This document shows, piece after piece, positions 28,621 to 62,894 of a stretch of DNA of 64,000 nucleotides. Source of the stretch: an uncultured delta proteobacterium (GTDB lineage Bacteria; Myxococcota_A; Polyangia; Fen-1088); assembly GCA_963737265.1 (NCBI GenBank), contig CAVTRY010000013.1, forward strand, positions 230,933 through 294,932. Direction: 5' to 3'. The position numbers were made by a program, and so were the translations under genes. The stretch's first letter is position 1. Each line of letters starts with the position of its first letter. The notes beneath the pieces are model-generated. The model worked only from the letters and a program-made list of their open reading frames with translations. It made no database searches and had not been told where the DNA came from.

Positions 28621-29970
28621 GTGCGAATCCTACATGTCATTGAAAATCGGACACGCCTCGGCCTCCACGGTTGGGCACTCACCGCGGCGGTTCTCTCACT
28701 GCCATCTCTAGCCACCGCAGCGCCCTTCACTATTGAAGATGCCATCCGCGCGACCTGGAAACAGAATCCAGCCATCACCAGCAGTGGCGAGATGGTTGCC
28801 GCGGCCAGGGCTGATGCCGAGGGTGCACGAGACGGACGTTTGCCAAGCATCCTTCTTTCGGCGAAAGCTGTCGCGACCAACGAGCCGATGTCGGCGTTTG
28901 GCCTCAAGCTGGACGAACAGAGGATCACGGCCGCCGATTTCGATCCCAACCGGTTGAATGCTCCTGCCAGCGTGGGTGGCGTTGGGCTGGGTGCCACCGT
29001 GATGCAGCCGCTTTACATGGGCGGCCGTCTGACTGCCGCCCGTCACGCTGCCTCGGCGCAAGCCGAAGCCGAAACCTGCTCGCACGAGCGACGCATGCAG
29101 GAGATGGCGCTGCAGGTGGTTCAAGCCTACTTTGGCGCCCAGGTTGCGGCCGAGGGGCTCAAGTTCGCGGAGGATGTGCTGGCGCAGGCACGCGAGACTG
29201 AAAGCTTCACCCGTTCTCGAAATCAACAAGGGCTTGCGCTCGATGCTGATGTCGCCCGCGCAACCGCATTCCGCGCGCAAGCCGAGGCGGAGAGCAGCGT
29301 CGCCAAGCAACGCCTGGATTCTGCGCGCGCAATGCTCGTGTTGTTGGCGGGCGAGCAAGCCGCGACAGGTGACCTAGGTTCACCGCTTGTCGTAGCAGAA
29401 GTTTCCGTGAATCCTGAAAACACCAGCCATCAACGAGCCGACCTCAAGGCCGCCGAGCTTCGTGCCGAGGCCGCGCGCGCCATGGTTGTAGCCATGCGTG
29501 GAAGCATGCTTCCCGAGGTGATGGCCCAGGCCACGCTGGAGACCATGCGCTCAGATTTCACTCAAGGAGCAACCTGGTACAGCCTGGGCCTGGTCGCCCG
29601 CTGGAGGTTGTCCGTCACAGACCTGCGAACGACCAACGCGGCCTCGCTGCGCGCAAGCGCCGCGGAAGATTCTCGACGATGGCAAGATCGGAAGGCAACC
29701 TTTGAAGTCGACGAAGCCCAACGCGCCTTGCAGTCGGCGCGATCGCGGGGACAGTCCGCGCTCGAAGCTGAGGCCGCCTCTGAGTCCGCGCGCACCCTGC
29801 GCATGGCACGCCATCGTCAGGGGCTACTGCCACTGACCGAAGTTCTCGACGCCGAAGCCGGCCTTGCCGGTGCACGGACGCTTTTACTCAGCAGCGAGTA
29901 CGACGCCCGAGTCGCCGCAGCCCAGCTTCAATTCGCATTCGGCAAACCCATCGAAGGAGTACGACCATGA
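28621..29970 (+). CDS. TolC-family outer-membrane efflux protein
   Basis: Two repeated coiled-coil halves (LEDAIRATW.., AARADAEGA.., RLDSARA..), typical of OEP. The start is uncertain: GTG at 28621 was chosen because it precedes the signal-like ALTAAVLSLPSLATA. Confidence 0.75.
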   Translation: MRILHVIENRTRLGLHGWALTAAVLSLPSLATAAPFTIEDAIRATWKQNPAITSSGEMVAAARADAEGARDGRLPSILLSAKAVATNEPMSAFGLKLDEQRITAADFDPNRLNAPASVGGVGLGATVMQPLYMGGRLTAARHAASAQAEAETCSHERRMQEMALQVVQAYFGAQVAAEGLKFAEDVLAQARETESFTRSRNQQGLALDADVARATAFRAQAEAESSVAKQRLDSARAMLVLLAGEQAATGDLGSPLVVAEVSVNPENTSHQRADLKAAELRAEAARAMVVAMRGSMLPEVMAQATLETMRSDFTQGATWYSLGLVARWRLSVTDLRTTNAASLRASAAEDSRRWQDRKATFEVDEAQRALQSARSRGQSALEAEAASESARTLRMARHRQGLLPLTEVLDAEAGLAGARTLLLSSEYDARVAAAQLQFAFGKPIEGVRP

Positions 29971-30971
29971 TCCGTTCATCACGCATCGGCGCGACCATCG
30001 CGCTTGCCATCACCCTTGGCCAAGGAAATCCGGCTCGGGCCGAGCCGCATCCGGTGACCGTGCACCTCGCGACCGCCGCGACCGATAGCACCGTGCCACT
30101 TTATGCCGCCACCCTAGCGCCCGTGCACCGAGCAACGGTTTCCACGCGTCTGGCGGCAACGGTCCAAAGGGTGCTCGTGGCTGAGGGCACGCACGTGAAG
30201 CACGGGCAGCTCCTGGTGACGCTGTCGAATGACGAGGTTCAGGCCCAAGTAGCGGCGTCTTCCACAGCCCTTGCAAACGCTACGGCCTACGAGCGGCGCA
30301 TATCAGAGTTGACGAGCCAGCGCGCCGCCACGCCGGTCGAGCTGGAATCGGCCCAGGCCCAACGCGCGCAGGCCGCCGCCGCGCTCGCTGGCACGCGAGC
30401 CAGTCTCGCTTACACACAGCTAAGGGCGCCATTCGACGGAGTCGTGCAGGCCCGCCGGGTCAGCGCTGGTGATTTTGTCGGTCCAGGACAGCCGCTCATC
30501 GAGATCGAGGGGGCTGCACTCGAAGTACAGGCGACACTGTCCGAAGAAGAGGCTGGATCTCTCCATATCGGGCAGAAGATCAAATTCGAGGCCGACGGCC
30601 GGCACGGCGAGGCAGAGATCACCGCTCTCACTCCCGGCGGTGATGCGCTTTCGCATCGCCGAGCGCTGCGCGCCAGGGTCACCGACCGGGTATCCGAATT
30701 CCGCTCGGGCGCGTTCGTCCGCATGCAGATCCCGGGCGGCGTCCAGCCAACGCAGCGAAGGGTTCCCAAGAGTGCTCTCGTCCAGCGCGGCGACTTGACC
30801 GGCGTGTTCGTGGCCGAGAATGGCCACGCCCGTTTGCGCTGGTTGTCTCTGGGCGAGACGTCGAGCAACGATGTCGTCGTGCGCGCCGGCCTATCTCCGA
30901 GCGAGTCGATCATTGATGCGCCCGGCAGCCTGCGTGATGAGCAAGCGGTGGAGATCGTCAATGCCCGCTGA
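29967..30971 (+). CDS. efflux RND periplasmic adaptor (MFP/HlyD family)
   Basis: Signal peptide, a lipoyl/barrel-sandwich pattern (VKHGQLLVTL...LRAPFDGVV) and a 4-nt overlap with the tolC-like stop. Confidence 0.85.
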   Translation: MIRSSRIGATIALAITLGQGNPARAEPHPVTVHLATAATDSTVPLYAATLAPVHRATVSTRLAATVQRVLVAEGTHVKHGQLLVTLSNDEVQAQVAASSTALANATAYERRISELTSQRAATPVELESAQAQRAQAAAALAGTRASLAYTQLRAPFDGVVQARRVSAGDFVGPGQPLIEIEGAALEVQATLSEEEAGSLHIGQKIKFEADGRHGEAEITALTPGGDALSHRRALRARVTDRVSEFRSGAFVRMQIPGGVQPTQRRVPKSALVQRGDLTGVFVAENGHARLRWLSLGETSSNDVVVRAGLSPSESIIDAPGSLRDEQAVEIVNAR

Positions 30972-31154
30972 ACGAGAGATAGGCTTTGCCCAGGGCCATC
31001 GCATCATCCTACATCGACGCAGGATCCATCAGAGTCTCGGCCATTTCTGGAAGGTTTTCCCCTGGGGTCGGTGCGCGCGCCGGTGTGCAGGCAGGTTCGG
31101 CAGCGCGCACGGGCGCGGAGACCGGCATAACTATCGGCATCTCCGCAAGATCAC

Positions 31155-31475
31155 TTACAATTTAGATGCGTTGGCCCTGCCGACGATGTCGAGAGGGCTT
31201 CGTCCCAGCTCGTGCCCCTCTCTGTCCCAAAGCATGAGAGCGAGGGCATCCGTTTCCAGGTTCTTCACAATGGCCAGGATCTTGCCCCCGGGCAAGGGAT
31301 AGACCGGCGGTATGAACTCGCCTTGCACCTGCCAGCTTGCCTGCCATCCCGTGAGCTGCAGTCGTTGGCTCAGACCACGCACCGTCACACGGTTTTCTTC
31401 AGCACGAACATTGTACGTCATGATGAGTCCAGCAAATACGAGTCCAGCGAATACGAGGATCGCACACAGGGTCAT
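31155..31475 (-). CDS. hypothetical membrane-anchored protein inside the IS (possible passenger)
   Basis: MTLCAILVFAGLVFAGLIMTYNV... has one TM helix and contains a 15-bp tandem duplication. GC is lower. It lies between IRL and the transposase gene on the opposite strand. Confidence 0.35.
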   Translation of the reverse strand: MTLCAILVFAGLVFAGLIMTYNVRAEENRVTVRGLSQRLQLTGWQASWQVQGEFIPPVYPLPGGKILAIVKNLETDALALMLWDREGHELGRSPLDIVGRANASKL

Positions 31476-31571
31476 CGCATCTAAATCCCGAACGATCTTC
31501 GTGGTATAGCCGGCGCACCAGAGAGGAACGTTTTTTGATTGAAGGGCGATATCGTGGCTTGTTCGTAAGTC

Positions 31572-32741
31572 ATGAAGCGAACAACCGTGGCGGAACGAGA
31601 AAAGGAAGAGCTGGCGGCATCGATCCTGGAGTACTTCGCGTCGGTGCCGGATCCGCGGGTGGAGCGGACGCGGCACCACGCGCTGACGGACATCCTGATG
31701 CTATCGTTGTGTGCCGTGGTCTGTGGTGCTGACTCCTTCTGTGCTATCGAGACCTATGGGCGGGCAAGAGAAGCCTGGTTACGAACGTTTATCGGTCTGC
31801 GCGGCGGGATTCCCACACACGACACCATCGGGAGGGTGTTTGCAGCCCTGAATCCAGATGCCCTGGCTGAGAGGTTCCGGCAGTGGATCTTGAGCGTGGC
31901 GCGACTCACGAAAGGCGAGGTCGTGGCCATCGACGGCAAGACGCTGCGACGATCCTTCCAAGAGGCCGGCAGCCACGCTTTCGTCCACATGGTTAGTGCC
32001 TGGGCCACCAACAACCACGTGGTTCTTGGGCAGGTCAAGACAGAGGAGAAATCCAACGAGATCACTGCCATTCCGCGGTTGCTCAAGCTCCTGAAGATCA
32101 AGGGCTGTCTAGTAACTATCGATGCGATGGGCTGCCAGAAGCAGATCACCGCAGATATCCAGGACGCCGACGCGGATTACCTGCTCGCGGTGAAGGAGAA
32201 CCAACCCACGCTCAGCGCTGAAGTGACGACAATCTTCGCGCATTGTCGTCGCGACCCGACGGGATTGGACGTGGATTTTCACGAGACACGCGATGTTGGG
32301 CACGGACGAACCGAGGTTCGCCGGTGCTGGACCACAAACATGGTCGAGAGCATCTCCCAGTACCAGGAATGGACGGGTCTGAGCAGCTTGGTATTGATCG
32401 AGTCCGAGCGCACGGTCTCGGGGCACACTTCAACCGAGTGCCGCTACTACATCAGTTCGCGAAAGAACCTCCCAGCAGATGCCGCTCTCGACGCCGCTCG
32501 GAAGCACTGGGGAATCGAAAATGAATTGCACTGGGTTCTCGACGTCACTTTCCGTGAGGACGAATGCCGTGTTCGCGCCGGCAACGCCGCCCAGAACTTT
32601 GCAGTGATGCGCCACATCTCACTCAACCTCCTCAAATCAGTCAAAGACTGCAAGCTCAGCATCAGGCTTCGCCGAATGCGCGCGGCATGGGATCAGGACT
32701 TCATTCTGCAAGTCCTCATGGCCCAACCCGATGTGGGATGA
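31572..32741 (+). CDS. ISAs1-family (H-repeat-associated) DDE transposase
   Basis: FASVPDPRVERTRHHALTDILMLSLCAVVCGADSF..IETYG... is the characteristic ISAs1 N-terminus. The stop lies inside IRR. Confidence 0.9.
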   Translation: MKRTTVAEREKEELAASILEYFASVPDPRVERTRHHALTDILMLSLCAVVCGADSFCAIETYGRAREAWLRTFIGLRGGIPTHDTIGRVFAALNPDALAERFRQWILSVARLTKGEVVAIDGKTLRRSFQEAGSHAFVHMVSAWATNNHVVLGQVKTEEKSNEITAIPRLLKLLKIKGCLVTIDAMGCQKQITADIQDADADYLLAVKENQPTLSAEVTTIFAHCRRDPTGLDVDFHETRDVGHGRTEVRRCWTTNMVESISQYQEWTGLSSLVLIESERTVSGHTSTECRYYISSRKNLPADAALDAARKHWGIENELHWVLDVTFREDECRVRAGNAAQNFAVMRHISLNLLKSVKDCKLSIRLRRMRAAWDQDFILQVLMAQPDVG

Positions 32742-35700
32742 TGCGATGACCCTGAGGCTTTGCCGGCCGGGTCGCACAGACCTTTCTGCGCAGCAAGCTC
32801 ACCCCGCTTATCGTCGTCGCCTCACTGTTGCTTGGTCTAGCGGCGGTCTTCCTCACGCCTCGTGAAGAAGAGCCACAGATCGTTGTGCCCATGGTGGACG
32901 TCATCGTGCCCATGCCTGGTGCCACGCCGGTCGAGGTGGAATCCCAACTGACGACACCGCTCGAACGCCGCATGTGGGGCTTGCCAGGCGTCGAGTACCT
33001 CTACAGCACCAGCCGCCCCGGGGCCGCCCTGCTCACGATTCGCTTCAAAGTGAACGAGCCTCTCGAACCCAGCCTGGTGAAGGTCCATCAAGAACTGGCG
33101 GCCCACCCAGAGCTCATGCCTGCCGGTGCACTCCAGCCGGTCGTTCGTTTGCTGACCATTGACGACGTACCGTTCTTGAACCTGACATTGCACGGTGAAG
33201 ACCAGGCACCCGGTGTTCTGCGGGCTGTGGCCGACGAGGTGGCGCGCGAATTGGCCGATGTGCCGCAGACCGCCCAGGTGCACGTACTCGGCGGCGCCCG
33301 TCGCGTGGTTCGCATCGAACCCGATCCCGAACGGCTACGAACGCTACAAGTCTCGCTTGCCGAATTGGATCCGGCTCTGCGTGCCTCGCAGGCCCAGCTG
33401 CCCGCGGGCGCGCTGGTCGACGCCAACAGGCGGGTTGAACTGGAAGCCAAAGGTTACGCGCTGTCGGCCGCCGACTTGCGCCGCGTAGTCGTGGCCACGC
33501 GCGGAGATCGCCCGGTCTATTTGGAAGACGTGGCGCGCGTGACGGACGGTCCCGAACCCGAGCCCGCCATCGTCGTGACGGCCAAGAAGGGGCAGTCCGG
33601 CTTCGAGCAAGCGGTGGCCATTGCCGTGGCCAAGCGGCCGGGTACCAACGCCACCGATCTGGCGACGCGCGTGCTCGGTAAGGTCGAGGCACTCAAGGGC
33701 CGGCTTATCCCCTCGTCGATCACCGTGGATGTAACCCGCAACTATGGCGAAACGGCCGGCGAGAAGTCGAACGAGCTCATCGAGCACCTCCTCATTGCCA
33801 CGCTTTCCGTCATCGCGCTCATCTTGCTCGCCATGGGCTGGCGCTCGGCCGTCATCGTGGCCATCGCGGTCCCGGTCACGCTAGCGCTGACCCTGCTGCT
33901 CACGTACCTGTTCGGCTACACACTCAACCGCGTCACACTGTTCGCGCTCATCTTCTCCATCGGCATCTTGGTGGACGACGCCATTGTGGTGGTCGAGAAC
34001 GTGCACCGGCATCTCTATCTGCCCGGACCCAAGCGCAGCTTCGCGCGCACGGTGATTGACGCCGTGGACGAAGTCGGTAACCCGACCATCCTAGCCACCT
34101 TCGCCGTTGTCGCGGCCATCCTGCCGCTGGCCCTCGTGCGCGGCCTCATGGGCCCGTACATGCGGCCCATTCCCATCGGTGCCAGCGTGGCCATGATGTT
34201 CTCGCTGGCAATTGCCTTCATCGTCAGCCCCTGGGCGGCCATGATCGTCTTTCGCAAGAAGGCACATTTGCCCGACACGGACGAGACGGGGCTACACCCC
34301 GCGGATCCAAGCTACGAGGCTCCCTCGCCAGAAACCGACGACGTCACGGCCCACCCCGAGTCGCGACCAGAGACCATTTGGACGCGCATGCACCGGACCA
34401 TCACACGAGAGCTGCTGGGATCCACCGGCGCCCGCTGGGCTTTCGTGGGTGGACTGGTGGTGCTCTTGGGTGGTGCGGCAGCTTTGGTCGCGGCTGGCAC
34501 GGTCAAGGTCAAGATGTTGCCCTTCGACAACAAGGCCGAGTTCCAGGTTCAGCTCGACATGCCGGCGGGAACGCCCCGCGAAGACACCTTCGTTGTCGGC
34601 CAAGCCCTGGCGCGCCGGGTGCTCGATGAGCCGGAGGCGCTCGACGTCCAGGTCTATGCAGGCGTGGCCGCGCCCTTCACCTTCGTCGGCATGGTTCGCC
34701 ATAGCTTCTTCCGGGATGCGCCCGAGCAGGTCGACTTGCAGGTCAACCTGGTGCCGAAGGGCAAGCGCAAGGCGCAAAGCCACGCCATCGTCATGCGCCT
34801 GCGGCCCGCCCTGGAAGCGATTGCCAGCGCCAAGGGTGGCCGGCTCAAGTTGGTCGAGATTCCGCCGGGTCCTCCCGTGCTCGACACCCTGGTGGCGGAG
34901 GTCTACGGCCCCAGCACTGCCGAGCGCGATCGCTTGGCGCAGAGACCCTGGCCGCTTTTCACTCCACCGTGGGTGTCGTCGACATCGATTCGACCCTGAA
35001 CCCGACCTCGCCCAAGATTTCCATCGAAATCGATCGAGAAAAGTCCGCCCTGCACGGGGTTGCGCCCACCGCCGTCGTGCAGACCTTGGCCGCGGCCGGG
35101 TATGGCGCGCAACTGGGTCTATTCCACGGCGGACACGGCGCAAACCAGAATCCCCATCATCCTGCAACTCGCACCGGCCCAGCGCAGCCGCATCGATCAA
35201 CTGTTGCAGTTGACTGTTCCCGGTGTTCGCGGTCCGGTCCCACTCTCCGAACTGGTGCATACCACCGCTGGGCTCGCCGACCCCGACATCTTCCACAAGA
35301 ACCTCATGCCTGTGTCCTACGTCTTCGGGGACCTGGCCGGTAGCATTGAAAGCCCGGTCTACGCCCTGGCTGCCCTCAACAAGAAGCTCGACAACCTCCG
35401 CAGCGCCTCGGGCGAAGTTGTGCCGCGCTTCGGGCTCAACCTGCCCACCGATACCGAACACTCTTCGCTCAAATGGGACGGCGAGTGGCACATCACCCTG
35501 GAAGTGTTCCGCGATCTCGGCCTCGCCTTCGCGGCGGTGCTGATTCTCATCTACGTTCTGGTCGTCGGCTGGTTCCAGAGCTTCACGGTTCCGCTGGTCA
35601 TTCTGGTTCCCATCCCGCTGTCACTCATCGGAATCATTCCCGCCCACTGGGCGATGGGGAGCTTCTTCACCGCGACCAGCATGATCGGCTTCATCGCCGG

Positions 35701-36069
35701 AGCCGGCATCATCTTACGCAACAGCATCATCTTGGTGGACTTCATCGAGCTGAAGTTGCGCGAGGGCATGCCGCTGGCCCTGGCCGTCGAGGAAGCGGGC
35801 GTGGTCCGATTTCGCCCCATGGTGCTCACCGCGGCCGCCGTTTTGGTCGGCAGCGCAGTCATGCTGGCCGATCCCATTTTCCAGGGTTTGGCCATCGCAC
35901 TCATGGCCGGCCAAGTGGCGGCGACCTTGCTGTCTCGCTTGGCCGTCCCGCTTCTTTACTTCGTGCTGGCTCGCCGCGGTCGTGCTGCCGAGTTGCAACG
36001 TGAAGGCGCCCGCAACCTGCCCACCGAACTCGCCAACATCATCCCCTTGTCTCGAACCGGGAGCACGCC

Positions 36070-36300
36070 ATGACCATTGACCGTATCGTCTTCGCAGTGG
36101 CCGGTTCACTCGTGCTTCTGAGCGTGGTACTTACCCTCGCCGTCAGCCCTTGGACCAACGGCAAGGTGGTGGTGCCTGCCCTCAACGCCTTGCACATCGA
36201 CCTCGCCATCCCGGGCAACTGGGAGGTGGTCTATGGGATCCCGGCGCTGCTCGAGCGCTCACGCGAGCTCAACTACCCGATCGTGGTAGATGGTCGCTAG
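36070..36300 (+). CDS. small membrane protein (N-terminus DUF2892/YgaP-like)
   Basis: The ATG overlaps the RND stop (ATGA). [28 protein letters not shown] resembles the DUF2892 N-terminus. The C-terminal half was not recognised. Confidence 0.4.
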
Positions 36301-37956
36301 CTAGGTTTCCCAATTGAAGCCGCCCTCGGCCACCATGCTCATGTGGCCGCCGGTCACGTTGGCGACGTCGGCGAAGCCGTGCTGCTTGAGAATGCGGACG
36401 GCCAGATGGGCGCGAAAGCCCGACCGGCAGTGCACGACGATGCGCCTATCCTTGGGCAGGCGATCGATCTCGAAGCGCAGGTCGTCCACCGGAAGGTGCA
36501 TGGCTCCAGCAAGATGAGACGCCTCGTACTCGCCGAGGGTTCGGACGTCGAGAACGAGGGGCGGCTTGGGCGTGGCTAGCTCGGCCTTGAGCTCTGCCGC
36601 CGACACGAGCGGGCTGAATCCCGAGAGATCGTTCTGACCGATGAACGCGGCCAGGTTGATCGGGTCGTTGGCCGTCGAGTAAGGCGGCGCGTAGGCGAGA
36701 TCGAGCTCGGCCAAATCGTGCAGTGTGAGCTTGCCGGCAAGCGCGGTGGCGAGCACGTCGATGCGCTTGTCGACGCCGGCCGGGCCGAATGCCTGGGCGC
36801 CGAGCAGTCGAGCGGTCTTCTTGTCGTAGATGAGCTTGAGCGACAGCTCTTCGGCGCCTGGGTAGTAGCCGGCGTGGTGGCCCTTGTAGATGACCGCAAC
36901 GCCGACGGCGAAGCCGGCCTCGCGCGCCGAACGTTCAGATAAGCCAGTTGCCGCAGCCGTGGCCTCGAAGATCTTGACGACGCTGGTGCCGAGCGCGCCT
37001 CGGTAGGCCATGTCCAAGCCCAGCGCGTTCGAAGCAGCGATGCGGCCCTGACGATTGGCTGGCCCGGCCAGCGGTACGCGCACGCGCCTGCCCGAGACCT
37101 TGTGCAGGATCTCCAGCATGTCACCCGCCGCGTAGATGTCGGGATCTGCCGTGCGCAAATGGTCGTCGACCACGAGGCCCCCGGTCGAGCCAATTTCAAG
37201 CCCCGCCTTGCGCGCCAGGGTGAGCTCGGGGCGAACGCCAACCGAGAACAGCACCAGATCCGCGGGCAGGCGGCGCCCGTCTCCGAGCACGACGGTGCTG
37301 TCCGCAACCGATTCGACCTTCACGCCCGTCAGCACCTTCACGCCGTTGGCTTCGAGCACGGAGGCAACCTGGTGACCGACCTCTGGATCCATGTTTGCCA
37401 TCACGCTCGGCAAAAGCTCGACCACGGTTGTCGCGAGTCCGCGTTTCTTCAGCGCCTCGGCCATTTCGAGACCGATGAAGCCGCCTCCGACCACGACGGC
37501 GGTGCGGGGCTTGTCCTTTTCGATATAGGCGTGCATTCGGTCCATGTCAGGGACCGTCCATAGTTTGAATACGTAGGGCGCGTCAGCCCCGGGCATGGAG
37601 GGCGTGATGGGATTGCCACCCTGGGCGAGGATGAGCTTGTCGTAGGCCAGCCACGACTCGCCGCCCTTGCCGCGCACCAGGACCTTCTTGCCCAATCGAT
37701 CGATCTCGATGGTTTCGGTTTCGAGCAAGACGCGTACGCCGTAGCGGGCATCGAAGCCCTCTGGCGTCTGCAGAAGCAGATCAGAGCGTTTGACGATGTC
37801 GCGCGAGATGAAGTACGGCAGCCCGCAGTTGGCATACGAGACATAGGGCCCCCGCTCGACCACGGTGATCTCGGCCGCTTCGCTGATTCGACGGGCACGT
37901 GCGGCGGCGGTCGCTCCGCCCGCAACACCTCCGACGATGACGATTTTGGTCTTCAT
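36301..37956 (-). CDS. CoA-disulfide reductase / NADH-dependent persulfide reductase fused to a C-terminal rhodanese domain
   Basis: FAD motif IVGGVAGGATAA, redox Cys in SYANCGLPY, a second dinucleotide fold VVGGGFIGLE, and a C-terminal rhodanese active site VVHCRSGFR. Confidence 0.85.
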   Translation of the reverse strand: MKTKIVIVGGVAGGATAAARARRISEAAEITVVERGPYVSYANCGLPYFISRDIVKRSDLLLQTPEGFDARYGVRVLLETETIEIDRLGKKVLVRGKGGESWLAYDKLILAQGGNPITPSMPGADAPYVFKLWTVPDMDRMHAYIEKDKPRTAVVVGGGFIGLEMAEALKKRGLATTVVELLPSVMANMDPEVGHQVASVLEANGVKVLTGVKVESVADSTVVLGDGRRLPADLVLFSVGVRPELTLARKAGLEIGSTGGLVVDDHLRTADPDIYAAGDMLEILHKVSGRRVRVPLAGPANRQGRIAASNALGLDMAYRGALGTSVVKIFEATAAATGLSERSAREAGFAVGVAVIYKGHHAGYYPGAEELSLKLIYDKKTARLLGAQAFGPAGVDKRIDVLATALAGKLTLHDLAELDLAYAPPYSTANDPINLAAFIGQNDLSGFSPLVSAAELKAELATPKPPLVLDVRTLGEYEASHLAGAMHLPVDDLRFEIDRLPKDRRIVVHCRSGFRAHLAVRILKQHGFADVANVTGGHMSMVAEGGFNWET

Positions 37957-40329: not shown

Positions 40330-43300
40330 CTACCCTCTGTCGTCGACCCTCGCCGCGCCGCCGCTGCCCTCGCGCACGCGCGACAGCAGATTTTTCGCCG
40401 GCACCAGTCGGTCGCGGTTCGACAATCCCATCGAAGGTGGCGCGCTGGGACCGTCCGAAAGCGCGGCCATGCCGCGCCGGCCGCGAACTGCATTGTTGAG
40501 GAAAACCTCGAGGCGGCGGTTTTGTCCGCCGCTGCCGTCGTAGAATAAACTGACGATGGGCATGTCCACGTCGGCCGAGAGCCGGCCGGTGATGGCCGTC
40601 GCGACGGTTTCTGGCATACAGCCGAAGGGGGCGCAATTGACCACCATGGCCGCGCCCTGCTGCGCGAACTTGATGGCGCGCCCGACGGACAGCTTGCCCT
40701 CGCCGCCCAAGTAGAAAGGAATGTAGGGCGTGGCCAGCTCCAGGTACTCCTGGAAGGGCGGCTCGTGCCGGTCGTCGAGGAAGGGACTGGCCGCCTTCAT
40801 CAGCTTCTCTTCCCAGTGCTTCATCCAGTGGTAGGTGATGAAGGTGTCCGCCTTTTCCCACGAGAAGATCGTCGACGGGAATTCCTCTTTGAAGTTTTCC
40901 ATCGACGACGTGTAGATGACCCAGTCGGTGATGGGCAGCATCCACGCCTCGCCACCGAAGGTCTCGATGGCGCCGATGACGTCCTCGTTGGCGAAGGTGT
41001 TGTTGCGCACGTAGATTTCGCCCACCACGCCGACGAGTGGCTTGCGCGGCCCGGCGGTTTCAATCGCCGCGATCTTCTCGATGGCGGTGCGCAGGGTCGC
41101 GGCGATGTCGCCATTCGCTTCGATGGTCTTGGCCAAAGCGTCCGCGCCTTCGTTCACCACGCGGTCGGTTTCGCCGATTTTCACTTCGTACGGCCGAACC
41201 TTGCACTGGGCCTTGAGCAGAATGTCCGCGCACGCGATGGCCTTGAATAGCGTGCGGCGCATGATTCCGTCGAGCCCCTGGTAGGCGTTGTTCGAAGCCG
41301 GCGCCAAAATCGCCACCTCGTCGCCCAAGCCTTCGCGGTCGAGGATCTGCCGGTGCAAGACCGTGTACTGACCGAAACGGCACGGGCCCTTGGAGCTCGG
41401 CATGAAGAAGGCGTGCTTGCCACCGCGCGGCTGCTCGCGCAGGGTCTTGAGAAACACGCCCAGGGTCAGCGCGCACGGCAGGCATTCCGAACCGCGGGTC
41501 AGCGAACGGCCGAGCTCGAACGATTCCTTGTTCTCATCGGGCAACATGCGTGCGTCGTAGCCGTGCGAGCGAAAGGCCGCCGCGAACAGGCGCGTGCCGA
41601 AAAGATGCATGGGCGGCAGCCAAATGATCCTGTCACGCATGTCCGACGCCTCGGGGCGCGCGGGCGTGCGCGGACCACGCGGCGGGCGAGGGCGGCGGAG
41701 CACGTCGAAGAAGGCCTCGAGGCGGGTCATGTAGCCCGCGTCGGCGCCGTGCTCGTCGAGCTCCAGCATCAGCAGTGGCCGGTTGCCCATGATCTCCTCG
41801 GCGTAGCTCAGCAGGAAGCTGTCCGGCCCGCACGAGAAGTTGGTGAGATAGACCACGTCCATGGTTTTGCTCTCGGCGGCCATTTCGAGCACCGCCAAGA
41901 TCTTCTGACCGTAGCTCCAGAAGGCGTTGCGATAGCGCTCGCCCAAACGACTCAAGTCGGGCTTGATGAAGTCCATGGGCAGCACGGTGCGGCCGAGATC
42001 CGCGATCTTCTGCGGCAATCCCAAGTTGGCGCCAGCGTCGTAGATATTGTAGGGACGACCGACGAGCAGGATGAGCTTTTCGTCCTTGCTCTCGGCGTCG
42101 GCCATCATCTTCGCGCCTTCTTCGTGACAGCGGCTCTCGAAGGCCGCCTGGGCTTCCAGGCCCGCGTGCCACGCCTTCTTGATCTGGCGCGCCGACCGGC
42201 CGAGCTGTCGCGAAAGTCCGTCGCCAAGCGTCTTGATGATGTCTCGTTCGCGCATGCGCATGTCGACGAGCGGGGTCAGCACGCGCGAGGCATCGATGTG
42301 GTTCATCAGGAGCGCCGTCCGCGAGGCTGCGGCGGTGCCCTGCACATACGGGCACACCGTGGTGCCGGTGGTTTCCTCGTTGGCCGGCGTGTTCTTGACG
42401 TGCGGAACGAAGACGAAATCCACGCCTTCCTGCGTGGCCAGCTTGGCCACATGGCCGAGCGCGAGCTTGGCCGGGAAGCAGAAGTCCGCGCCCGCCATGC
42501 GCGTGCCCATCTCGCGAACCTCGTCGGTGGTCTGGCCCGAAAGCTGGACCTTGTAGCCGAGCGTATTGAAGAAGCGCTGCCACATTGGATAGTAGGTGTA
42601 GGTGATGAGCGACTGGGGAATGCCCACCGTGCGCGCATCGTCCGCGACCTTCACGCCGGCGCCCGATTCGCGCCACAGGCGCTGGCGCAGGCGAAGAGCG
42701 CGGTCGTGCGGACTCTTGCGCACCTTTTGCTCGCCCGGATCGCGACCGCACATGTAGCCCCAAGAGGGCGCGGGCACGTCTTCCACACCTTCGATTTCCG
42801 CAAAGGTGATGCTGCAATCGTTTTGGCACAGCTCGCAGGTTTCCTTGCGCAGGCTCACCTTGCGGCTTTCCAGGTCGAGCCCGTGAAAGCGCGACTTGGT
42901 CACACCCATTTCCGCCATGAACTGGCGGGCCAGACGGGCCACGCCAAACGCGCCCATGACGTGGCAGTAGGGCGAAACCACGACCTCCACGCCAAGGATG
43001 CGCTCGAACGCGGCCACCAGCGCCTTGTTGCGGGCCGTGGCGCCCTGGAACATGATGCGCTTGCGACTGTAGTGGCGGTTGCCCACGACCTTGTTGAGGT
43101 AGTTTTTGGCCACCGCGACCAGCACCGCCGCCAGGGCTTCCTCGCGTGTCGCTCCCCCTTCGATGAAGCGGGCCACATCCTGCTCCATGAAGACGGTGCA
43201 GCGATCGGTGGCGCGCGGAGGCTTCACGCCCAGCACCGCGGCGCCCACGTCGGCGACTTTGTAGCCGAGCTTGTTGGCCTGCTCCTCGATGAATGAACCG

Positions 43301-44649
43301 GTGCCGGCGGCGCACACGTAGTTCATGTTGGCGTCGCGGATGTGGCCATCCACGATGTGCATGTACTTGGCGTCCTGGCCGCCGATTTCGAAGATGGTGT
43401 CGACCGCGGGATCGGTGAACGTCGCGCCGGCTACGTGCGCGCTGATCTCGTTGACGATGGAGTCGGCGCCGATGACCTCGCCGACGATCTTTCGCCCGCT
43501 GCCGGTGGTGGCCACGCCCAGAATCTCGATGCGCGTACCCTTCTTGCGTTCGAGCTCGCGCAGGGCACGGAAGAGCTTCTGCGAGGCGCCGACCGGATCG
43601 CCCGAGGTTTTGCGATAGATGTCGACCTTGAGGTCGTCCTTTTCGTCGATGAGAGCCAGCTTGGTGCTGGTCGAGCCGATGTCGATGCCGAGGTAGACAC
43701 GCAAGATCTGGCCCGCCGGCCACGACACCACGCGAACCTCGTTGTTGTCGGCGTCGACGTACGCCTCGGCGCTGGCGAAACTGGGATAGGTGGACTTTTC
43801 CAGCGTCAGCGGCCAGTCGTGGTACTCGACGTCGTTGCTGGTGGCGATGCGATGAATGGCCTCGCGCGAGGGTAAGTGCTTGGGCACGCTGCCGCGGGTC
43901 GCGGCGCCCATGGCGGCCACCAAATGAGGCTGAGAAGGCGTGCGCAAAAGGCCGGGATAGGCCGCGTCCAGCCAGCGCAAGACCTCGCGGTTCAAGGCCA
44001 CGCCACCGATAATCGCCGTGGGCTTGTCGAGCGGCTTGGCGCGCAGAAGGGTGCCGATAAGGGTGCGGGTCATGCCGCGACACAGGCCCGACCACATCGC
44101 GGCCTTGCTGTAACCTTCCTGCTGACGGTGGATGAGATCGCTCTTGGCGAACACCGAACAGCGAGTGGCGATGGAAGGCGGTTCTGCGACCGATCCCACC
44201 AGGGTCGGGTCGTCGTAGGAAATGCCGAGGCGCGCGGCCTGCTCGTCGAGAAACGAGCCGGTGCCGGCGGCGCACATGGAGTTTGTGGCATAGTTCTGAA
44301 AATGTCCCTGGTCATCGAGCTGCACCAAGGTGACGGAGCCGCCGCCGATGTCGATGATGTTGGTGACGTCGGGAAACTGGGCCAGCACGACCGCGATCTG
44401 ACAGGCTGCGAGATCCTGGCGCGGGACTTCGAAGGACTCGCAGAACCTGGCCGAGTTGGAGCCGCAGAATCCGATTGAATCGCCAGCCTTCACCGACAGT
44501 TCGGCGAGTGCGCTTTCCAAGATTTTGGCGGGCTCGCCGCGATGCCTGGCGTAGAAGGACTTGACGACTTCGCCATCCGCGCCAAGTCTCACCGCCTTGA
44601 GTGACACCGCGCCGATATCGATGCCAATCTTCCCTGGGTTTTCCTTCAT
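40330..44649 (-). CDS. fused acyl-CoA dehydratase activase-related protein (two BcrAD/BadFG ATPase modules plus DUF2229/2-hydroxyacyl-CoA-dehydratase-like region)
   Basis: 1439 aa. Two actin-fold ATPase starts are present (GIDIGAVSLKAV and LGIDIGSTSTKLALID), each with a CAAGTGSF cluster-ligand motif. The long C-terminal region is typical of 'CoA-substrate-specific enzyme activase' giants. Confidence 0.85.
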   Translation of the reverse strand: MKENPGKIGIDIGAVSLKAVRLGADGEVVKSFYARHRGEPAKILESALAELSVKAGDSIGFCGSNSARFCESFEVPRQDLAACQIAVVLAQFPDVTNIIDIGGGSVTLVQLDDQGHFQNYATNSMCAAGTGSFLDEQAARLGISYDDPTLVGSVAEPPSIATRCSVFAKSDLIHRQQEGYSKAAMWSGLCRGMTRTLIGTLLRAKPLDKPTAIIGGVALNREVLRWLDAAYPGLLRTPSQPHLVAAMGAATRGSVPKHLPSREAIHRIATSNDVEYHDWPLTLEKSTYPSFASAEAYVDADNNEVRVVSWPAGQILRVYLGIDIGSTSTKLALIDEKDDLKVDIYRKTSGDPVGASQKLFRALRELERKKGTRIEILGVATTGSGRKIVGEVIGADSIVNEISAHVAGATFTDPAVDTIFEIGGQDAKYMHIVDGHIRDANMNYVCAAGTGSFIEEQANKLGYKVADVGAAVLGVKPPRATDRCTVFMEQDVARFIEGGATREEALAAVLVAVAKNYLNKVVGNRHYSRKRIMFQGATARNKALVAAFERILGVEVVVSPYCHVMGAFGVARLARQFMAEMGVTKSRFHGLDLESRKVSLRKETCELCQNDCSITFAEIEGVEDVPAPSWGYMCGRDPGEQKVRKSPHDRALRLRQRLWRESGAGVKVADDARTVGIPQSLITYTYYPMWQRFFNTLGYKVQLSGQTTDEVREMGTRMAGADFCFPAKLALGHVAKLATQEGVDFVFVPHVKNTPANEETTGTTVCPYVQGTAAASRTALLMNHIDASRVLTPLVDMRMRERDIIKTLGDGLSRQLGRSARQIKKAWHAGLEAQAAFESRCHEEGAKMMADAESKDEKLILLVGRPYNIYDAGANLGLPQKIADLGRTVLPMDFIKPDLSRLGERYRNAFWSYGQKILAVLEMAAESKTMDVVYLTNFSCGPDSFLLSYAEEIMGNRPLLMLELDEHGADAGYMTRLEAFFDVLRRPRPPRGPRTPARPEASDMRDRIIWLPPMHLFGTRLFAAAFRSHGYDARMLPDENKESFELGRSLTRGSECLPCALTLGVFLKTLREQPRGGKHAFFMPSSKGPCRFGQYTVLHRQILDREGLGDEVAILAPASNNAYQGLDGIMRRTLFKAIACADILLKAQCKVRPYEVKIGETDRVVNEGADALAKTIEANGDIAATLRTAIEKIAAIETAGPRKPLVGVVGEIYVRNNTFANEDVIGAIETFGGEAWMLPITDWVIYTSSMENFKEEFPSTIFSWEKADTFITYHWMKHWEEKLMKAASPFLDDRHEPPFQEYLELATPYIPFYLGGEGKLSVGRAIKFAQQGAAMVVNCAPFGCMPETVATAITGRLSADVDMPIVSLFYDGSGGQNRRLEVFLNNAVRGRRGMAALSDGPSAPPSMGLSNRDRLVPAKNLLSRVREGSGGAARVDDRG

Positions 44650-44782
44650 TACTGCCTTTCCCCGGAATCAGATGCAGGTGTCCATCGGTGGGGCCGATGC
44701 CTACCACGGATAGACCGGATTCGCTAACCCGAAGAGCCGACCGGTCCGCCGGACTGCTTTGTTGCTACACTTGCCGCCGCAC

Positions 44783-45634
44783 ATGATCGGCACCTACCCC
44801 AACCTGACCGAGCTGACCCTCGCGGATCGGCCACTGCTCGACCCTTTTTTTCACCAGCTTCGCGACGGGCTGTCGGAACTGACCTTTGCCGGCATCTACT
44901 GTTTTCGCGAAGCGCATGCCTATCGCATCGGCCAACTTGTCGACGGGACCTACATCCTAGCCGGCGCCGACAAGGGCAAGACTTTCTTCGTGTGTCCGTT
45001 CGGTCTGCCGCGCCCCGATATGCTGGCCGGCCTTTTCGCGGTTTTTTCCAGCATGAAGCTGGTCACCGAGACACAGTCCGACCGCCTTCGCGCGGCCGGT
45101 TACGAGGTGACCGAGGATCGCGACAACTTCGACTACCTTTACCACCGCGAAGACCTGGCCAGTCTGTCCGGCCGCGCCCTGCAGAAGAAACGCAATCTGG
45201 TCAATTTCTTCCTCAAGGAAAATGCCTACCAGGCCCATCCGCTGTCCAACGAGCGTTTGGCCGATGCGCTGGCGGTGCTCGAAGCCTGGCGCAGCCACAG
45301 CCGCGATCCGGCGGACTACGCTCCGGCGCGCCAAGCCCTCATCCACGCGGGCGAATTCGGTCTGCGCGGGGCGGTTTACTATGTCGAAGGCGAGCCGGCG
45401 GGCTACACCCTTGGCGAAGAGGTGCGCGACGGCGCGATGTTCGTCGTGCACTACGAAAAGACCATTCCGGACATGAAGGGACTCTACCAGCTCATCAACA
45501 TGGACTTCGCGCGCACCCTGCCGGCCACATGCGTCCTCATCAACCGCGAGCAGGACCTCGGAGATCCCGGGCTGCGCCAGTCCAAGCTGACCTACCGTCC
45601 CCACGCCTTCGTGAAAAAATACCGAGCGCGCTAG
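44783..45634 (+). CDS. DUF2156-domain protein (lysyl-phosphatidylglycerol-synthase C-terminal-domain-like, GNAT-like fold)
   Basis: LSELTFAGIYCFREAHAYRI...KKRNLVNFFLKE...FVVHYEKT...GLYQLINMDFAR resembles the DUF2156 pattern. It is divergent from the activase giant. Start chosen at the ATG at 44783 (a TTG at 44759 is possible). Confidence 0.7.
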   Translation: MIGTYPNLTELTLADRPLLDPFFHQLRDGLSELTFAGIYCFREAHAYRIGQLVDGTYILAGADKGKTFFVCPFGLPRPDMLAGLFAVFSSMKLVTETQSDRLRAAGYEVTEDRDNFDYLYHREDLASLSGRALQKKRNLVNFFLKENAYQAHPLSNERLADALAVLEAWRSHSRDPADYAPARQALIHAGEFGLRGAVYYVEGEPAGYTLGEEVRDGAMFVVHYEKTIPDMKGLYQLINMDFARTLPATCVLINREQDLGDPGLRQSKLTYRPHAFVKKYRAR

Positions 45635-60178: not shown

Positions 60179-60518
60179 TGGTCTACCTGCGACCGCTTAA
60201 CGCCTATGGGGGTCGGGGGTGAGGAATACTTGCTCCTCCGTGGCACTGGCCATCGTCTCGCGGCCACGGCTCGCCTCCCATTTGCACCCCAGCCCTGAAT
60301 GCCAATTTCTGGACACAGCTTGAGTGGCGAAACGTTCGAGCACCCCGTGGCGCGTCATTCCGAGCACGCGAATCTTGATCGCCTGCGCCTCGGCGAGCCG
60401 GGCCTTGATCACTTCACCAGAAGGTCGGGGAGTTGTTGCCGGTTCGACACACAAGATTGCGATACTAACTGCCCGTGGAACATCCGCGACGTTCGGCAAG
60501 GATCAATCTGGTGCTGCC

Positions 60519-62894
60519 ATGAGCCGCCTGGCCCAAGCATTCTCCGAACCCGTTGTCCGGTCGGTGGACAATTCGGCGCCGCCCTCCGCGGAGCGGTTGC
60601 GCGATGCCCTCGGCATGCGCGACGTAAGCGACCTCGACCGTCTGCCATTCGTGGGCGAGGACACCACCGCGGGCAGCGAAGCGGAACTGCAAGCGTCGGT
60701 CCAGGGCTGTCGGCAAACCGTGGACTTGCCTCGGGTCGTGGCGCAATCGGATTTCTTCGCCAACATCGTGCGCCGTGCGGCCGTCGGTGACACCGCGGCG
60801 CGCGCGGTGCATGCGCTCGAACGCTTTCTCGACGAGAACCGCGACGGCGTTTGGGACAACAGTTGGGTGCGTTTTCCCCGGCAACTGCTCGGACGGGCGG
60901 CGGCCGACACGCTGATGAACGATCTCTACGCAGACAAGGCCAATCCGCCCAGTGGATTGCGTAGCGATCTCACTAGTTTCCTAGCCGAGGAACGCGGCAT
61001 TGAATACGTTCGCGTCCCCATCAGCTACCTGCTCAAACTGGCCCTGGCCGACGCGGTCGCGGCCTTGCGCGAGGCGCCCGAGGCGGTTCGCAAGACCGGC
61101 CGTCGGCTGCTCGACAACTTCCTCAGCGACAACACCTCGCCCGAAACCTGCTCGTTCAACGTGGTTTCGCTGTCGCCTTCGGCGGGCGGCGGTCGGGTGC
61201 TCGCGCGCGAGGCGGGTCGACGCTTTCTTCTTACGCAATTGCTACTTGCCTACGCCAACCGACGCTACGAGCTCGAAGCCACGGGACAGAAGGCGGCTGC
61301 CTGCCACGCGCCGACTCCGCCCGTACGGCAACGCGAGCTCAACGAGCTCATCTCCGACTCCTTTTACCGCGAGGTCTTCATGAATCCCTGCCTGTCGGGC
61401 TGGGATCGCGGCGAGGAGAAACGCGCCTACATGGGCCTGTGCCACGAGGTACTCTCGCGCAGCCAACTCAACGGCGTAAAGAAGCTGCGCGACGCGGGCA
61501 TCATCTACAACAACCTCGTCGTCATGCCGAACACCTCGAACACCAGTCTTGCCAACAACGGTGTTCACGTGAGTCTAGGCAGCAGGCGCCTGACCGCTCT
61601 GGTCGCGGCAAACAACGACCGCTTCGGTCCGCGCGACGAAAAGCATTTCGGGGATCTCGCCATCAAGATCATGGAGCACTTCCTGCCGCTGTTCGTCGGC
61701 ACCTACAGCGCGGCTCCGTATCGACTGGGCTTTCGCGATCTCCACCCGGAGACCGCGCTCGGCTTTCTGCCGCACGAACTGGATTTTACCCATCTGCGCA
61801 TGCTGTGGCGTCGCTGGAAAGGCAAGGCCTCGATGCATGCCTTCGGTATGACCTTGACCCCGTGTGGACCGGCGTGGATCGATCGCGCTCTCAGCACGGT
61901 GTTCGGCCTGCGCGGGGATTGGGTGCCGGATTTTCGCCTCATCGACTATTTGGTCTTCCTGATGAGCACCCACACCAGTCCGTCGCTAAGTGGCGCCCTC
62001 GGCAACTCCGACCGCCTTAAACGAGATCTTGCCAGCATGGGCGTCTTCGACGCGCGCATGTCGCTCTACCTGCTCGTCAAGCTGCGCGAGCAAGCCGTGA
62101 TGGGATTTTCTGGCTTCGAAGGCCGCCAATACAGCCTGTTCGAGCGCTTCGCCGGCGACATGGCGCCTGCGGTCGGCCTGCAAAACCTTCTGTGTGCCCT
62201 GTCCTACCGGCTGATGGCGTCGGGCGCGGCGACACACGCCGATATTCCGGACGGCCCCACCATTGAAAGCGAACGGCGCCAAGTGGTATTCGATTGCGCC
62301 ATTGGACTGCCGACCTTCTTCGTCAACCAAGAGACGCCCAACCGATTCTTGAAAGCGATCCTCGAGCGCACCCAAGGCATTCGATCCAGTCGGCGTTACC
62401 CGGGCTACTGGCGCGTGGCGACCGACGAGTATCGTCGCGGCCTCGTGCGCTACATCCGCGAGGAAGCCGCCGACCTGGTCGAGGCGCTTGGCGTGGAGGA
62501 AACCCTGGGCGATCTCTTGCGCCGGATCGACGAACCGGAAGCACGCGCCGCCTATCGCCTGACGAGCGGTATCTTGGACCTGACCGGCGGGCGCGATCCA
62601 ATGAAGGTCGAGGCGCGCACGTTCAACCTCGCCGCTGAAGCCTACTATCGCGGGCCACTCCGCAAGGCGCAGCTTGCCGAGTCCCTGGACCTTCTGCGCG
62701 AGGAATTCACCGAGCCCATGCTCCGGTTGTGGGCTGCGCAAGGCGCTGGACTGCAATCGGTGGCCGATCCCGATGGCTACCTCGCCGCGGTCAAGAACGA
62801 CGTGGTCGAGGACCGCATCAACACCGAGGTGGTCCTACAACTCATCGGGCTTATTCTGCTCGTGACCTTGAACGCGGAGCCCACGGATGGTTGA
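60519..62894 (+). CDS. large conserved-looking protein of unknown function (about 790 aa)
   Basis: Long uninterrupted ORF with coding-like composition. Start chosen at the ATG at 60519 (the ORF is open from 60324). The stop overlaps the psd start by 8 nt. I recognise no domain or motif. Confidence 0.6.
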   Translation: MSRLAQAFSEPVVRSVDNSAPPSAERLRDALGMRDVSDLDRLPFVGEDTTAGSEAELQASVQGCRQTVDLPRVVAQSDFFANIVRRAAVGDTAARAVHALERFLDENRDGVWDNSWVRFPRQLLGRAAADTLMNDLYADKANPPSGLRSDLTSFLAEERGIEYVRVPISYLLKLALADAVAALREAPEAVRKTGRRLLDNFLSDNTSPETCSFNVVSLSPSAGGGRVLAREAGRRFLLTQLLLAYANRRYELEATGQKAAACHAPTPPVRQRELNELISDSFYREVFMNPCLSGWDRGEEKRAYMGLCHEVLSRSQLNGVKKLRDAGIIYNNLVVMPNTSNTSLANNGVHVSLGSRRLTALVAANNDRFGPRDEKHFGDLAIKIMEHFLPLFVGTYSAAPYRLGFRDLHPETALGFLPHELDFTHLRMLWRRWKGKASMHAFGMTLTPCGPAWIDRALSTVFGLRGDWVPDFRLIDYLVFLMSTHTSPSLSGALGNSDRLKRDLASMGVFDARMSLYLLVKLREQAVMGFSGFEGRQYSLFERFAGDMAPAVGLQNLLCALSYRLMASGAATHADIPDGPTIESERRQVVFDCAIGLPTFFVNQETPNRFLKAILERTQGIRSSRRYPGYWRVATDEYRRGLVRYIREEAADLVEALGVEETLGDLLRRIDEPEARAAYRLTSGILDLTGGRDPMKVEARTFNLAAEAYYRGPLRKAQLAESLDLLREEFTEPMLRLWAAQGAGLQSVADPDGYLAAVKNDVVEDRINTEVVLQLIGLILLVTLNAEPTDG

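Follow-up and report, generated by a model that had tools for sequence, protein, structure and literature searches.

We analyzed a stretch of 64,000 nucleotides (hereafter referred to as the window) from the genome of an uncultured delta proteobacterium (GTDB lineage Bacteria; Myxococcota_A; Polyangia; Fen-1088), corresponding to positions 230,933 to 294,932 of contig CAVTRY010000013.1 in assembly GCA_963737265.1. The analysis focuses on two divergently oriented genes, i.e., a giant gene on the minus strand (40330-44649) that encodes a 1439-amino acid (aa) protein with fused ATPase and dehydratase-like modules, and a gene on the plus strand that encodes a free-standing DUF2156 protein. An initial annotation, made from the sequence alone, had suggested that both genes might form a module for membrane-lipid modification. 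The giant gene is composed of the following features:

40330..44649, minus strand: whole gene, encoding the predicted single-chain PlsA/Ger-family protein of 1439 aa (P0001); open reading frame (ORF), Pfam/NCBIfam domains, orthologues, and the ratio of nonsynonymous to synonymous substitution rates (dN/dS).
43885..44634, minus strand: ATPase ("activase") module 1, residues ~6-255, with invariant C126 and C164; first BcrAD_BadFG stretch and alignment A1.
42910..43695, minus strand: ATPase module 2, residues ~319-580, with invariant C446 and C484; match to HgdC (1HUX) with an E-value of 1e-31.
42730..42852, minus strand: four-cysteine hairpin, residues ~600-640 (C605, C608, C612, C634); located between the ATPase and catalytic halves.
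41695..42630, minus strand: reductase/dehydratase-like module 1 (DUF2229), residues ~674-985, with invariant C724, C766, and C940; PF09989, HGD-D tail, alignment, and fold.
40480..41637, minus strand: reductase/dehydratase-like module 2 (PlsR-equivalent), residues ~1005-1390, with invariant C1056, C1090, and C1344; structural model, Foldseek, and alignment.
40333..40479, minus strand: poorly conserved C-terminal tail, residues 1391-1439; the A1 consensus ends in undefined columns, and the predicted local distance difference test (pLDDT) is <50 at the model end.

The 1439-codon frame is intact and uninterrupted. Pfam assigned two BcrAD_BadFG stretches (E-value 1.4e-57), followed after the ATPase modules by DUF2229 (PF09989), which was matched over its full profile (positions 1-218, residues 674-895; E-value 2.5e-61). 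An HGD-D tail at residues 914-984 was sub-threshold, with 23.7 bits at a cut-off of 28.4. In NCBIfam, the acyl-CoA dehydratase activase family TIGR00241 matched with an E-value of 8.8e-71, and the best stretch of TIGR02261 comprised residues 9-228. Control genomes for PF09989 gave matches in Thermotoga maritima, Lactococcus lactis, Bacteroides thetaiotaomicron, and Thermus thermophilus (three of the four above the cut-off, the output being silent on which three), and none in Escherichia coli and Bacillus subtilis. The gene is under purifying selection, as dN/dS values of 0.09-0.13 were obtained for four orthologue pairs. Metagenome orthologues share 79-96% identity with the protein, and the named near homologues originate from a "Polyangia bacterium" (81%) and a "Myxococcota bacterium" (59%), names which place the host among uncultured Polyangia-like Myxococcota.

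Conserved residues were derived from two alignments, one of 13 close to mid-distance homologues (A1) and one of 35 sequences from many phyla. In A1, the cysteine pairs C126/C164 and C446/C484 of the two ATPase modules are invariant. When aligned to HgdC (1HUX), C446 takes the position of Cys127, and C484 that of the other cluster cysteine, which is part of a "CTVF" motif. Since both modules keep the cluster cysteines of HgdC, the fused pair can hold a bridging [4Fe-4S] cluster, which is held by a homodimer in HgdC. The 35-sequence alignment further revealed two invariant cysteine triplets, one per catalytic module (724/766/940 and 1056/1090/1344), and four invariant cysteines (C605, C608, C612, and C634) in the region between the ATPase and catalytic halves. 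This region (residues 600-640) is covered by no family in the Pfam scan of the giant protein and was modeled as two beta-hairpins with a pLDDT of ~54-71; it may form an extra metal or cluster site between the two halves.

Module 2 likewise had no family match in the Pfam scan, and a sequence search of the PDB with the giant protein matched the activase half only. We therefore modeled residues 590-1400 with AlphaFold (pLDDT 86.6; predicted template modeling score 0.85) and compared the model to the PDB using Foldseek. The best 16 matches were all catalytic subunits of 2-hydroxyisocaproyl-CoA dehydratase, of benzoyl-CoA reductases (BzdNO, MbdON), or of a double-cubane cluster protein, with an identity of ~10% to the solved catalytic subunits. 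The fold of module 1 resembles HadB/C, BzdNO, and MbdON. Within the chain, activation modules 1 and 2 precede reduction modules 1 and 2. Pfam, NCBIfam, and Foldseek thus confirm the initial annotation in its description of two BcrAD/BadFG ATPase modules and a DUF2229/HgdAB-like region within 1439 aa.

The initial annotation had also named this architecture as that of the family including PlsA/PlsAR, which agrees with published descriptions. Single-gene plsA forms span 4,248-4,920 bp and encode two activation modules followed by two reduction/dehydration modules (PMC12838417), a range that fits the 1439 aa of the giant protein. Ger, known from Thermotoga maritima (Tmari_0479) and Desulfatibacillum alkenivorans (SHJ90043), is likewise one polypeptide with two BcrAD_BadFG stretches, then DUF2229, then HGD-D-like pieces (PMC13159169). 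Module order and cluster cysteines are shared with PlsA/PlsR of Clostridium perfringens (CPE1194/1195) and with the single-gene PlsA of Enterococcus faecalis, Lactococcus cremoris, and Bifidobacterium longum, whose hosts are likewise able to live with oxygen. A 1475-aa homologue from Listeria monocytogenes matched with 26% identity over 80% of the query length (E-value 1e-86). Listeria is reported to form plasmalogens under anaerobic conditions (PMC9702350), and the role of the Listeria gene is taken from the same paper. The match passes the thresholds of E ≤ 1e-50 and ≥ 30% coverage applied in one published screen (PMC13159169), and would fail the ≥ 30% identity rule of another (PMC11868695).

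In phylogenetic trees, a first group comprised the sequences of Listeria, Acetoanaerobium, Fusobacterium, Collinsella, and Haliovirga. A second, large group contained Desulfobacteraceae, Syntrophaceae, anammox Planctomycetota, Nitrospirota, and Bacteroidales. The giant protein fell into a third group, which is sister to the second and includes proteins from metagenome-assembled genomes (MAGs) of "Deltaproteobacteria", Myxococcota, Vicinamibacterales, Krumholzibacteriia, Spirochaetes, and Syntrophales. The named relatives (Listeria, Fusobacterium, Collinsella, Haliovirga, Acetoanaerobium, and Paraclostridium) were taken from PLSDB chromosomes mislabeled as plasmids; for PlsA/R of C. perfringens, PlsA of E. 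faecalis, and Ger of T. maritima and D. alkenivorans, which the trees left out, we infer the places. The phylogenetic placement that the initial annotation had called for was thus obtained in part: in a tree built on named relatives in place of the characterized PlsA and Ger enzymes, this homologue of PlsA-type proteins is separate from the Listeria-type clade, and its own clade has the Desulfobacteraceae/anammox clade as its sister.

Compared to PlsA, the giant protein differs in its clade, in its 26% identity to the homologue of Listeria, the plasmalogen producer in the comparison, and in the lack of an adjoining TetR gene, which accompanies the E. faecalis pls gene. The comparison to Ger is closer with regard to lineage, as MAGs of "deltaproteobacterial" and Myxococcota origin often contain Ger homologues (PMC13159169, PMC11868695) and the Desulfobacteraceae sequences belong to the sister clade of the giant protein's own; the position relative to the reference Ger sequences is a putative one. 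HgdABC, HadIBC, and class I benzoyl-CoA reductases share the HgdC-type ATPase with two cluster cysteines and the HadB/C-type catalytic fold. Unlike these systems, the giant protein combines all parts in one chain, carries DUF2229 and the four-cysteine insert, reaches only a sub-threshold HGD-D match, and has ~10% identity to the solved subunits. A classical 2-hydroxyacyl-CoA dehydratase with a separate activator (HgdABC, HadIBC, or YjiL/YjiM) was rejected, because the activators are fused in tandem, the HGD-D score remains below its cut-off, and E. coli is without a PF09989 match. Membership of the giant protein in the broad PlsA/PlsR-Ger family is well supported by domain content and conserved cysteines. 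Alkyl (Ger) and alkenyl (PlsA) producers are inseparable by sequence (PMC11868695), which also applies to the giant protein; its position nearer to the Desulfobacteraceae/anammox clade than to that of Listeria is a slight hint at alkyl ethers.

The initial annotation had regarded an oxygen-sensitive type of enzyme as unexpected in an aerobic lineage. This tension is weak, since homologues are common in Myxococcota, the host has both oxidases and ferredoxin oxidoreductases, and an aerobically active PlsA is known. Ger homologues were reported for 61 of 347 Black Sea Myxococcota MAGs (PMC11868695), and PlsA of L. cremoris makes plasmalogen even aerobically (PMC12838417). Among 201 sampled genomes of the phylum, the giant protein was matched in 112, of which ~60 gave a strong and mostly full-length match. 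The host genome encodes a haem-copper oxidase (COX1), cytochrome bd, and three 2-oxoacid:ferredoxin oxidoreductases, and no class III ribonucleotide reductase was found in it. A CarF-type desaturase (PF10520) was not matched in the host genome either; as the control genomes were all blank too, this result is uninformative. Regarding the habitat, identical fragments of the locus occurred in a soil metagenome, and pieces from permafrost, peat, and wetland metagenomes were mostly 90-99% identical (about two thirds at 90-95%). The metagenome runs were available as contigs, in which pieces without cover carry no information, and no RNA run was among those listed for the locus.

From the PlsA/Ger family, we infer the following steps for the giant protein. 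Its two fused HgdC-like ATPase modules, by homology to HgdC, would hold one bridging [4Fe-4S] cluster and receive an electron from reduced ferredoxin or flavodoxin, the host having three 2-oxoacid:ferredoxin oxidoreductase genes. Driven by ATP hydrolysis, the electron would pass to the pair of HadB/C-like modules, which have one cluster site of three cysteines each and in which the sn-1 acyl ester of a diacyl glycerophospholipid would be reduced and dehydrated. The product would be an alk-1-enyl ether, as for PlsA, or, after one further reduction, an alkyl ether, as for Ger. Most likely, the enzyme would act alone and at low oxygen levels, its host being a facultative bacterium of soil or peat.

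The host genome contains a second, split system of the PlsA/Ger family (genome G000, contig C7:234094-241713, corresponding to L121:5095-12714). Its first gene codes for 1247 aa that comprise two ATPase modules and DUF2229, and is followed after 18 bp by a gene for a 1285-aa protein. The first ~690 aa of the latter resemble the second catalytic module, and the remainder consists of a glutamate-synthase-small-subunit-like NAD(P)H oxidoreductase (Fer4_20 and Pyr_redox_2) and a ferredoxin domain. This oxidoreductase part could be a built-in electron supply. Roughly half of 40 genomes of the class carry the pair in unfused form (~1200 aa and ~600-670 aa), and a frame long enough for the oxidoreductase fusion was seen in the host genome, perhaps also in G228 and G230.

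The neighboring gene and the region that separates it from the giant gene comprise the following features:

44650..44782, no strand: divergent spacer of 133 bp (109 bp if TTG 44759 is used); read from the sequence.
44783..45634, plus strand: free-standing DUF2156 (tandem GNAT) gene, 283 aa, with TTG 44759 as alternative start (291 aa); PF09924, match to 2HQY, structural model, and motifs.

The ORF from 44759 to 45634 on the plus strand encodes a full LPG_synthase_C/DUF2156 domain (PF09924; E-value 1.2e-39). The ATG at 44783 (283 aa) is the likely start, since homologues start at this codon and no record exists of the exact 291-aa sequence from TTG 44759. Measured from this ATG, the spacer length agrees with the ~130 bp stated in the initial annotation, and a consensus scan of the spacer found no sigma-70-like promoter. 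The gene is under purifying selection as well (dN/dS 0.17-0.25 for four orthologue pairs).

The sole PDB match by sequence was 2HQY (BT_3689 of Bacteroides thetaiotaomicron; E-value 7.6e-28), to which the model of the DUF2156 protein (pLDDT 92.8) aligned with template modeling (TM) scores of 0.85-0.87 and 27-28% identity. The domains of MprF and FemX reached TM-scores of 0.56-0.66, and no MprF chain was found at E ≤ 0.01 when the PDB was searched with the DUF2156 protein. The protein keeps the motifs of the family, including a basic helix at residues 131-146 with an invariant R137 and N138 and a nearly invariant K136. All 120 listed homologues were 269-347 aa long, given a search window of 155-496 aa that places longer forms outside the search. 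As to function, BT_3689 holds acetyl-CoA in its active site, and the Helicobacter pylori DUF2156 protein HPB8_1270 behaves as a protein acetyltransferase and contributes to lysine acetylation of RNase J (PMC10700544). The neighbor protein is, like these two, free-standing and soluble, of the same size, and a tandem GNAT protein.

The initial annotation had related the protein to the catalytic domain of lysyl-phosphatidylglycerol synthase. This holds with regard to the Pfam family, the fold of two tandem GNAT halves, and the basic helix between them, all of which are shared with the catalytic domain of MprF/aminoacyl-phosphatidylglycerol synthase, and fails with regard to the nearest relative, which is 2HQY and not MprF. 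Unlike MprF, the protein has no flippase domain, and its similarity to MprF lies in the same range as that to FemX (TM-scores of 0.59-0.62). Two candidate assignments were rejected, namely an MprF-type protein with a membrane flippase, as the protein has only 283-291 aa and the homologues listed within the 155-496 aa search window have 269-347 aa, and lipid aminoacyl transferases as closest relatives, as the best structural match was 2HQY rather than MprF or FemX. The DUF2156 protein is predicted to be a soluble tandem-GNAT acyl or aminoacyl transferase of the BT_3689 type.

In 9 of 12 loci from other lineages of the phylum, DUF2156 homologues with 30-36% identity were located directly downstream of a small GNAT acetyltransferase gene, which is missing beside the DUF2156 copy of the window and sets this locus apart from BT_3689-type homologues in other lineages. 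The small gene encodes ~140 aa, more in some cases, and often its stop overlaps the start of the DUF2156 gene, so that both form a conserved two-gene unit (L124-L131 and L133 in genomes G225, G064, G124, G079, G084, G114, G046, G092, and G232).

Within the genus, the giant gene was present in all 12 genomes (E ≤ 1e-50, also applied to the sister genera) and the DUF2156 gene in 11 of them, compared with none of 12 genomes from sister genera of the host's family for either gene. The restriction of the giant gene to one genus within the family is a new, if modest, point. The two genes of a genus pair were always divergent and on the same contig, separated by 226-254 bp in two genomes and by 1.9-7.2 kb in all others. 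Direct adjacency (0.2 kb) was found in the window, in G207 and G212, and at the locus L096, i.e., in the most divergent members, and intervening genes in most members of the genus, one of which codes for a 531-aa TonB_C-domain protein. Ten related metagenome loci showed the same divergent arrangement, and other genes lay between the two in 9 of the 10 loci keeping DUF2156. The only genome of the genus in which a DUF2156 homologue was not found, G202 (completeness 84%), carries the giant gene as a series of overlapping pieces with frame shifts, partial duplications, and several stops (contig C28:9067-14680), which reflects either decay or an assembly problem.

Outside the genus, 79 loci of other species were without a DUF2156 gene in their flanks. 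Several loci for which 5.4-6 kb of upstream DNA was available also contained no DUF2156 gene. The two genes were on different contigs in 11 genomes of the phylum and 4 genomes of the class that carry both types, and no DUF2156 gene was found in at least 10 genomes with giant-gene orthologues of 45-47% identity. The conservation of the pairing, which the initial annotation had named as a check, therefore extends throughout the genus (11 of 12 genomes) and ends there, with absence from the 79 other loci and no linkage wherever both genes occur elsewhere. Among relatives of the giant protein's clade, no neighbor was recurrent except for a TetR regulator, seen at 6-7 of 24 loci. TetR/AcrR genes were located upstream of giant-gene homologues at L008, L143, L144, L145, and L151, downstream at L009, and also beside the homologue of Collinsella aerofaciens (L138). 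A TetR gene is also paired with pls of E. faecalis (EF1326/EF1327; PMC9702350), and none adjoins the giant gene in the window.

Regarding other features of the window, a gene for a 551-aa pyridine nucleotide-disulphide oxidoreductase with a rhodanese domain (CoA-disulfide-reductase-like; 36301-37956) lies ~2.4 kb downstream of the giant gene and was not conserved beside it in any relative. An efflux operon (29967-36073) appears disrupted, as a gene for an IS-type DDE transposase (31572-32741) is located between the HlyD-like and AcrB-like genes, and the frame for AcrB is broken up, giving two ORFs (32828-34999 and 35060-36073). At 60324-63900, 15 kb away, a phosphatidylserine-decarboxylase-like gene follows the gene of an 856-aa protein without Pfam match; no link to the giant gene or the DUF2156 gene was seen. 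The window also codes for a DUF4215 repeat protein, which was taken as a further sign of a Myxococcota/Polyangia host.

Based on the homology described above, the giant protein is probably a stand-alone, single-chain ether-lipid reductase of the PlsA/Ger family. Several observations weigh against this view. The clade of the giant protein has no characterized member among the sequences in the tree, and to our knowledge, no characterized enzyme belongs to it. Among the neighbors of the giant gene, the DUF2156 gene alone is retained throughout the genus, with all other flanking genes differing, and both genes have the same distribution within the host family. Furthermore, all four same-class genomes with a giant-gene orthologue of ~50% identity also have a DUF2156 homologue, albeit unlinked, and the one genus member without DUF2156 has a broken giant gene. 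The tree position and the distant relationship to the Listeria protein (26% identity) would also fit an uncharacterized sister clade that applies the same ATP-driven radical machinery to another ester lipid or to a non-lipid carbonyl substrate, given that the clade is separate from those of Listeria/Fusobacterium/Collinsella and of Desulfobacteraceae/anammox/Nitrospirota, and that the second, class-wide split system could be the real lipid enzyme of the host. We consider another substrate unlikely, as domain order and length match the characterized single-gene forms, both clades share the full set of invariant cluster cysteines, the recurring TetR neighbor matches the pls genes of facultative anaerobes (PMC9702350), and homologues of this kind have been classed as Ger in published screens that apply looser thresholds (PMC13159169, PMC11868695).

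The kept linkage raises the question of whether the giant enzyme and the DUF2156 protein act jointly on membrane lipids from a shared divergent promoter region, for example by aminoacylation or acylation of an ether lipid. The linkage persists in the genus while every other neighbor changes, direct adjacency in the most divergent members means that it may be ancestral, and both genes have the same genus-limited distribution. Moreover, 28 of 30 genome rows with DUF2156 homologues also have a PlsA/Ger-family gene (two samples, with G000 in both, i.e., 29 distinct genomes). These rows, however, represent only ~8 independent DUF2156 lineages, 6 of them with the family, which is little above the base rate among mostly anaerobe-like genomes, and most orthologue-bearing genomes are without DUF2156. 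Linkage is absent from other lineages, where a GNAT gene is the conserved partner of DUF2156; the protein belongs to the 2HQY type, for which acetyl-CoA binding or use is described in the relatives studied (PMC10700544); and the apparent co-loss in G202 is explainable by one deletion, since the genes adjoin. Joint action on lipids is rather improbable on this evidence. A broader variant is more doubtful still, according to which the genus acquired a sister-clade PlsA/Ger member together with a BT_3689-type transferase stripped of its GNAT partner, both serving lineage-specific membrane remodeling through acylation or aminoacylation of ether lipids or through acetyl control of the reductase; if true, this would give a first function for free-standing bacterial DUF2156 proteins. 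Finally, the DUF2156 protein could be a protein acetyltransferase like HPB8_1270 that modifies the giant enzyme or other proteins, making the link regulatory and not biosynthetic. The nearest structure, 2HQY (TM-scores of 0.85-0.87), and the contribution of the H. pylori protein to RNase J acetylation (PMC10700544) agree with such a role, which is nevertheless pure analogy without a pointer to a target, and the basic helix of tRNA-dependent members is kept as well (R137 and N138 invariant, K136 nearly so); we regard it as highly improbable.

Of the two-gene membrane-lipid module proposed initially, the genus linkage is real, whereas the lack of linkage outside the genus, the 2HQY-type protein, and the GNAT partner elsewhere speak against a shared function, leaving a two-gene lipid module unproven and unlikely. 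We read the closeness of the DUF2156 gene to the giant gene as an inherited feature of the genus, and not as a functional module. No comparison beyond the genus supports the pairing as such a module, yet it cannot be dismissed outright in view of the shared distribution and the kept linkage. The giant gene itself is an intact, ordinary member of a known family, in a phylum from which this family has already been reported, and adds one more case to a described pattern (PMC11868695). The one point of broader relevance is the possible meaning of the linkage, throughout the genus, to a DUF2156 protein of the free-standing type. If the giant gene is expressed, an oxygen-respiring, peat-dwelling relative of the myxobacteria could make ether lipids via an anaerobic route, which bears on the question of which organisms make the bacterial ether lipids that are used as environmental proxies.

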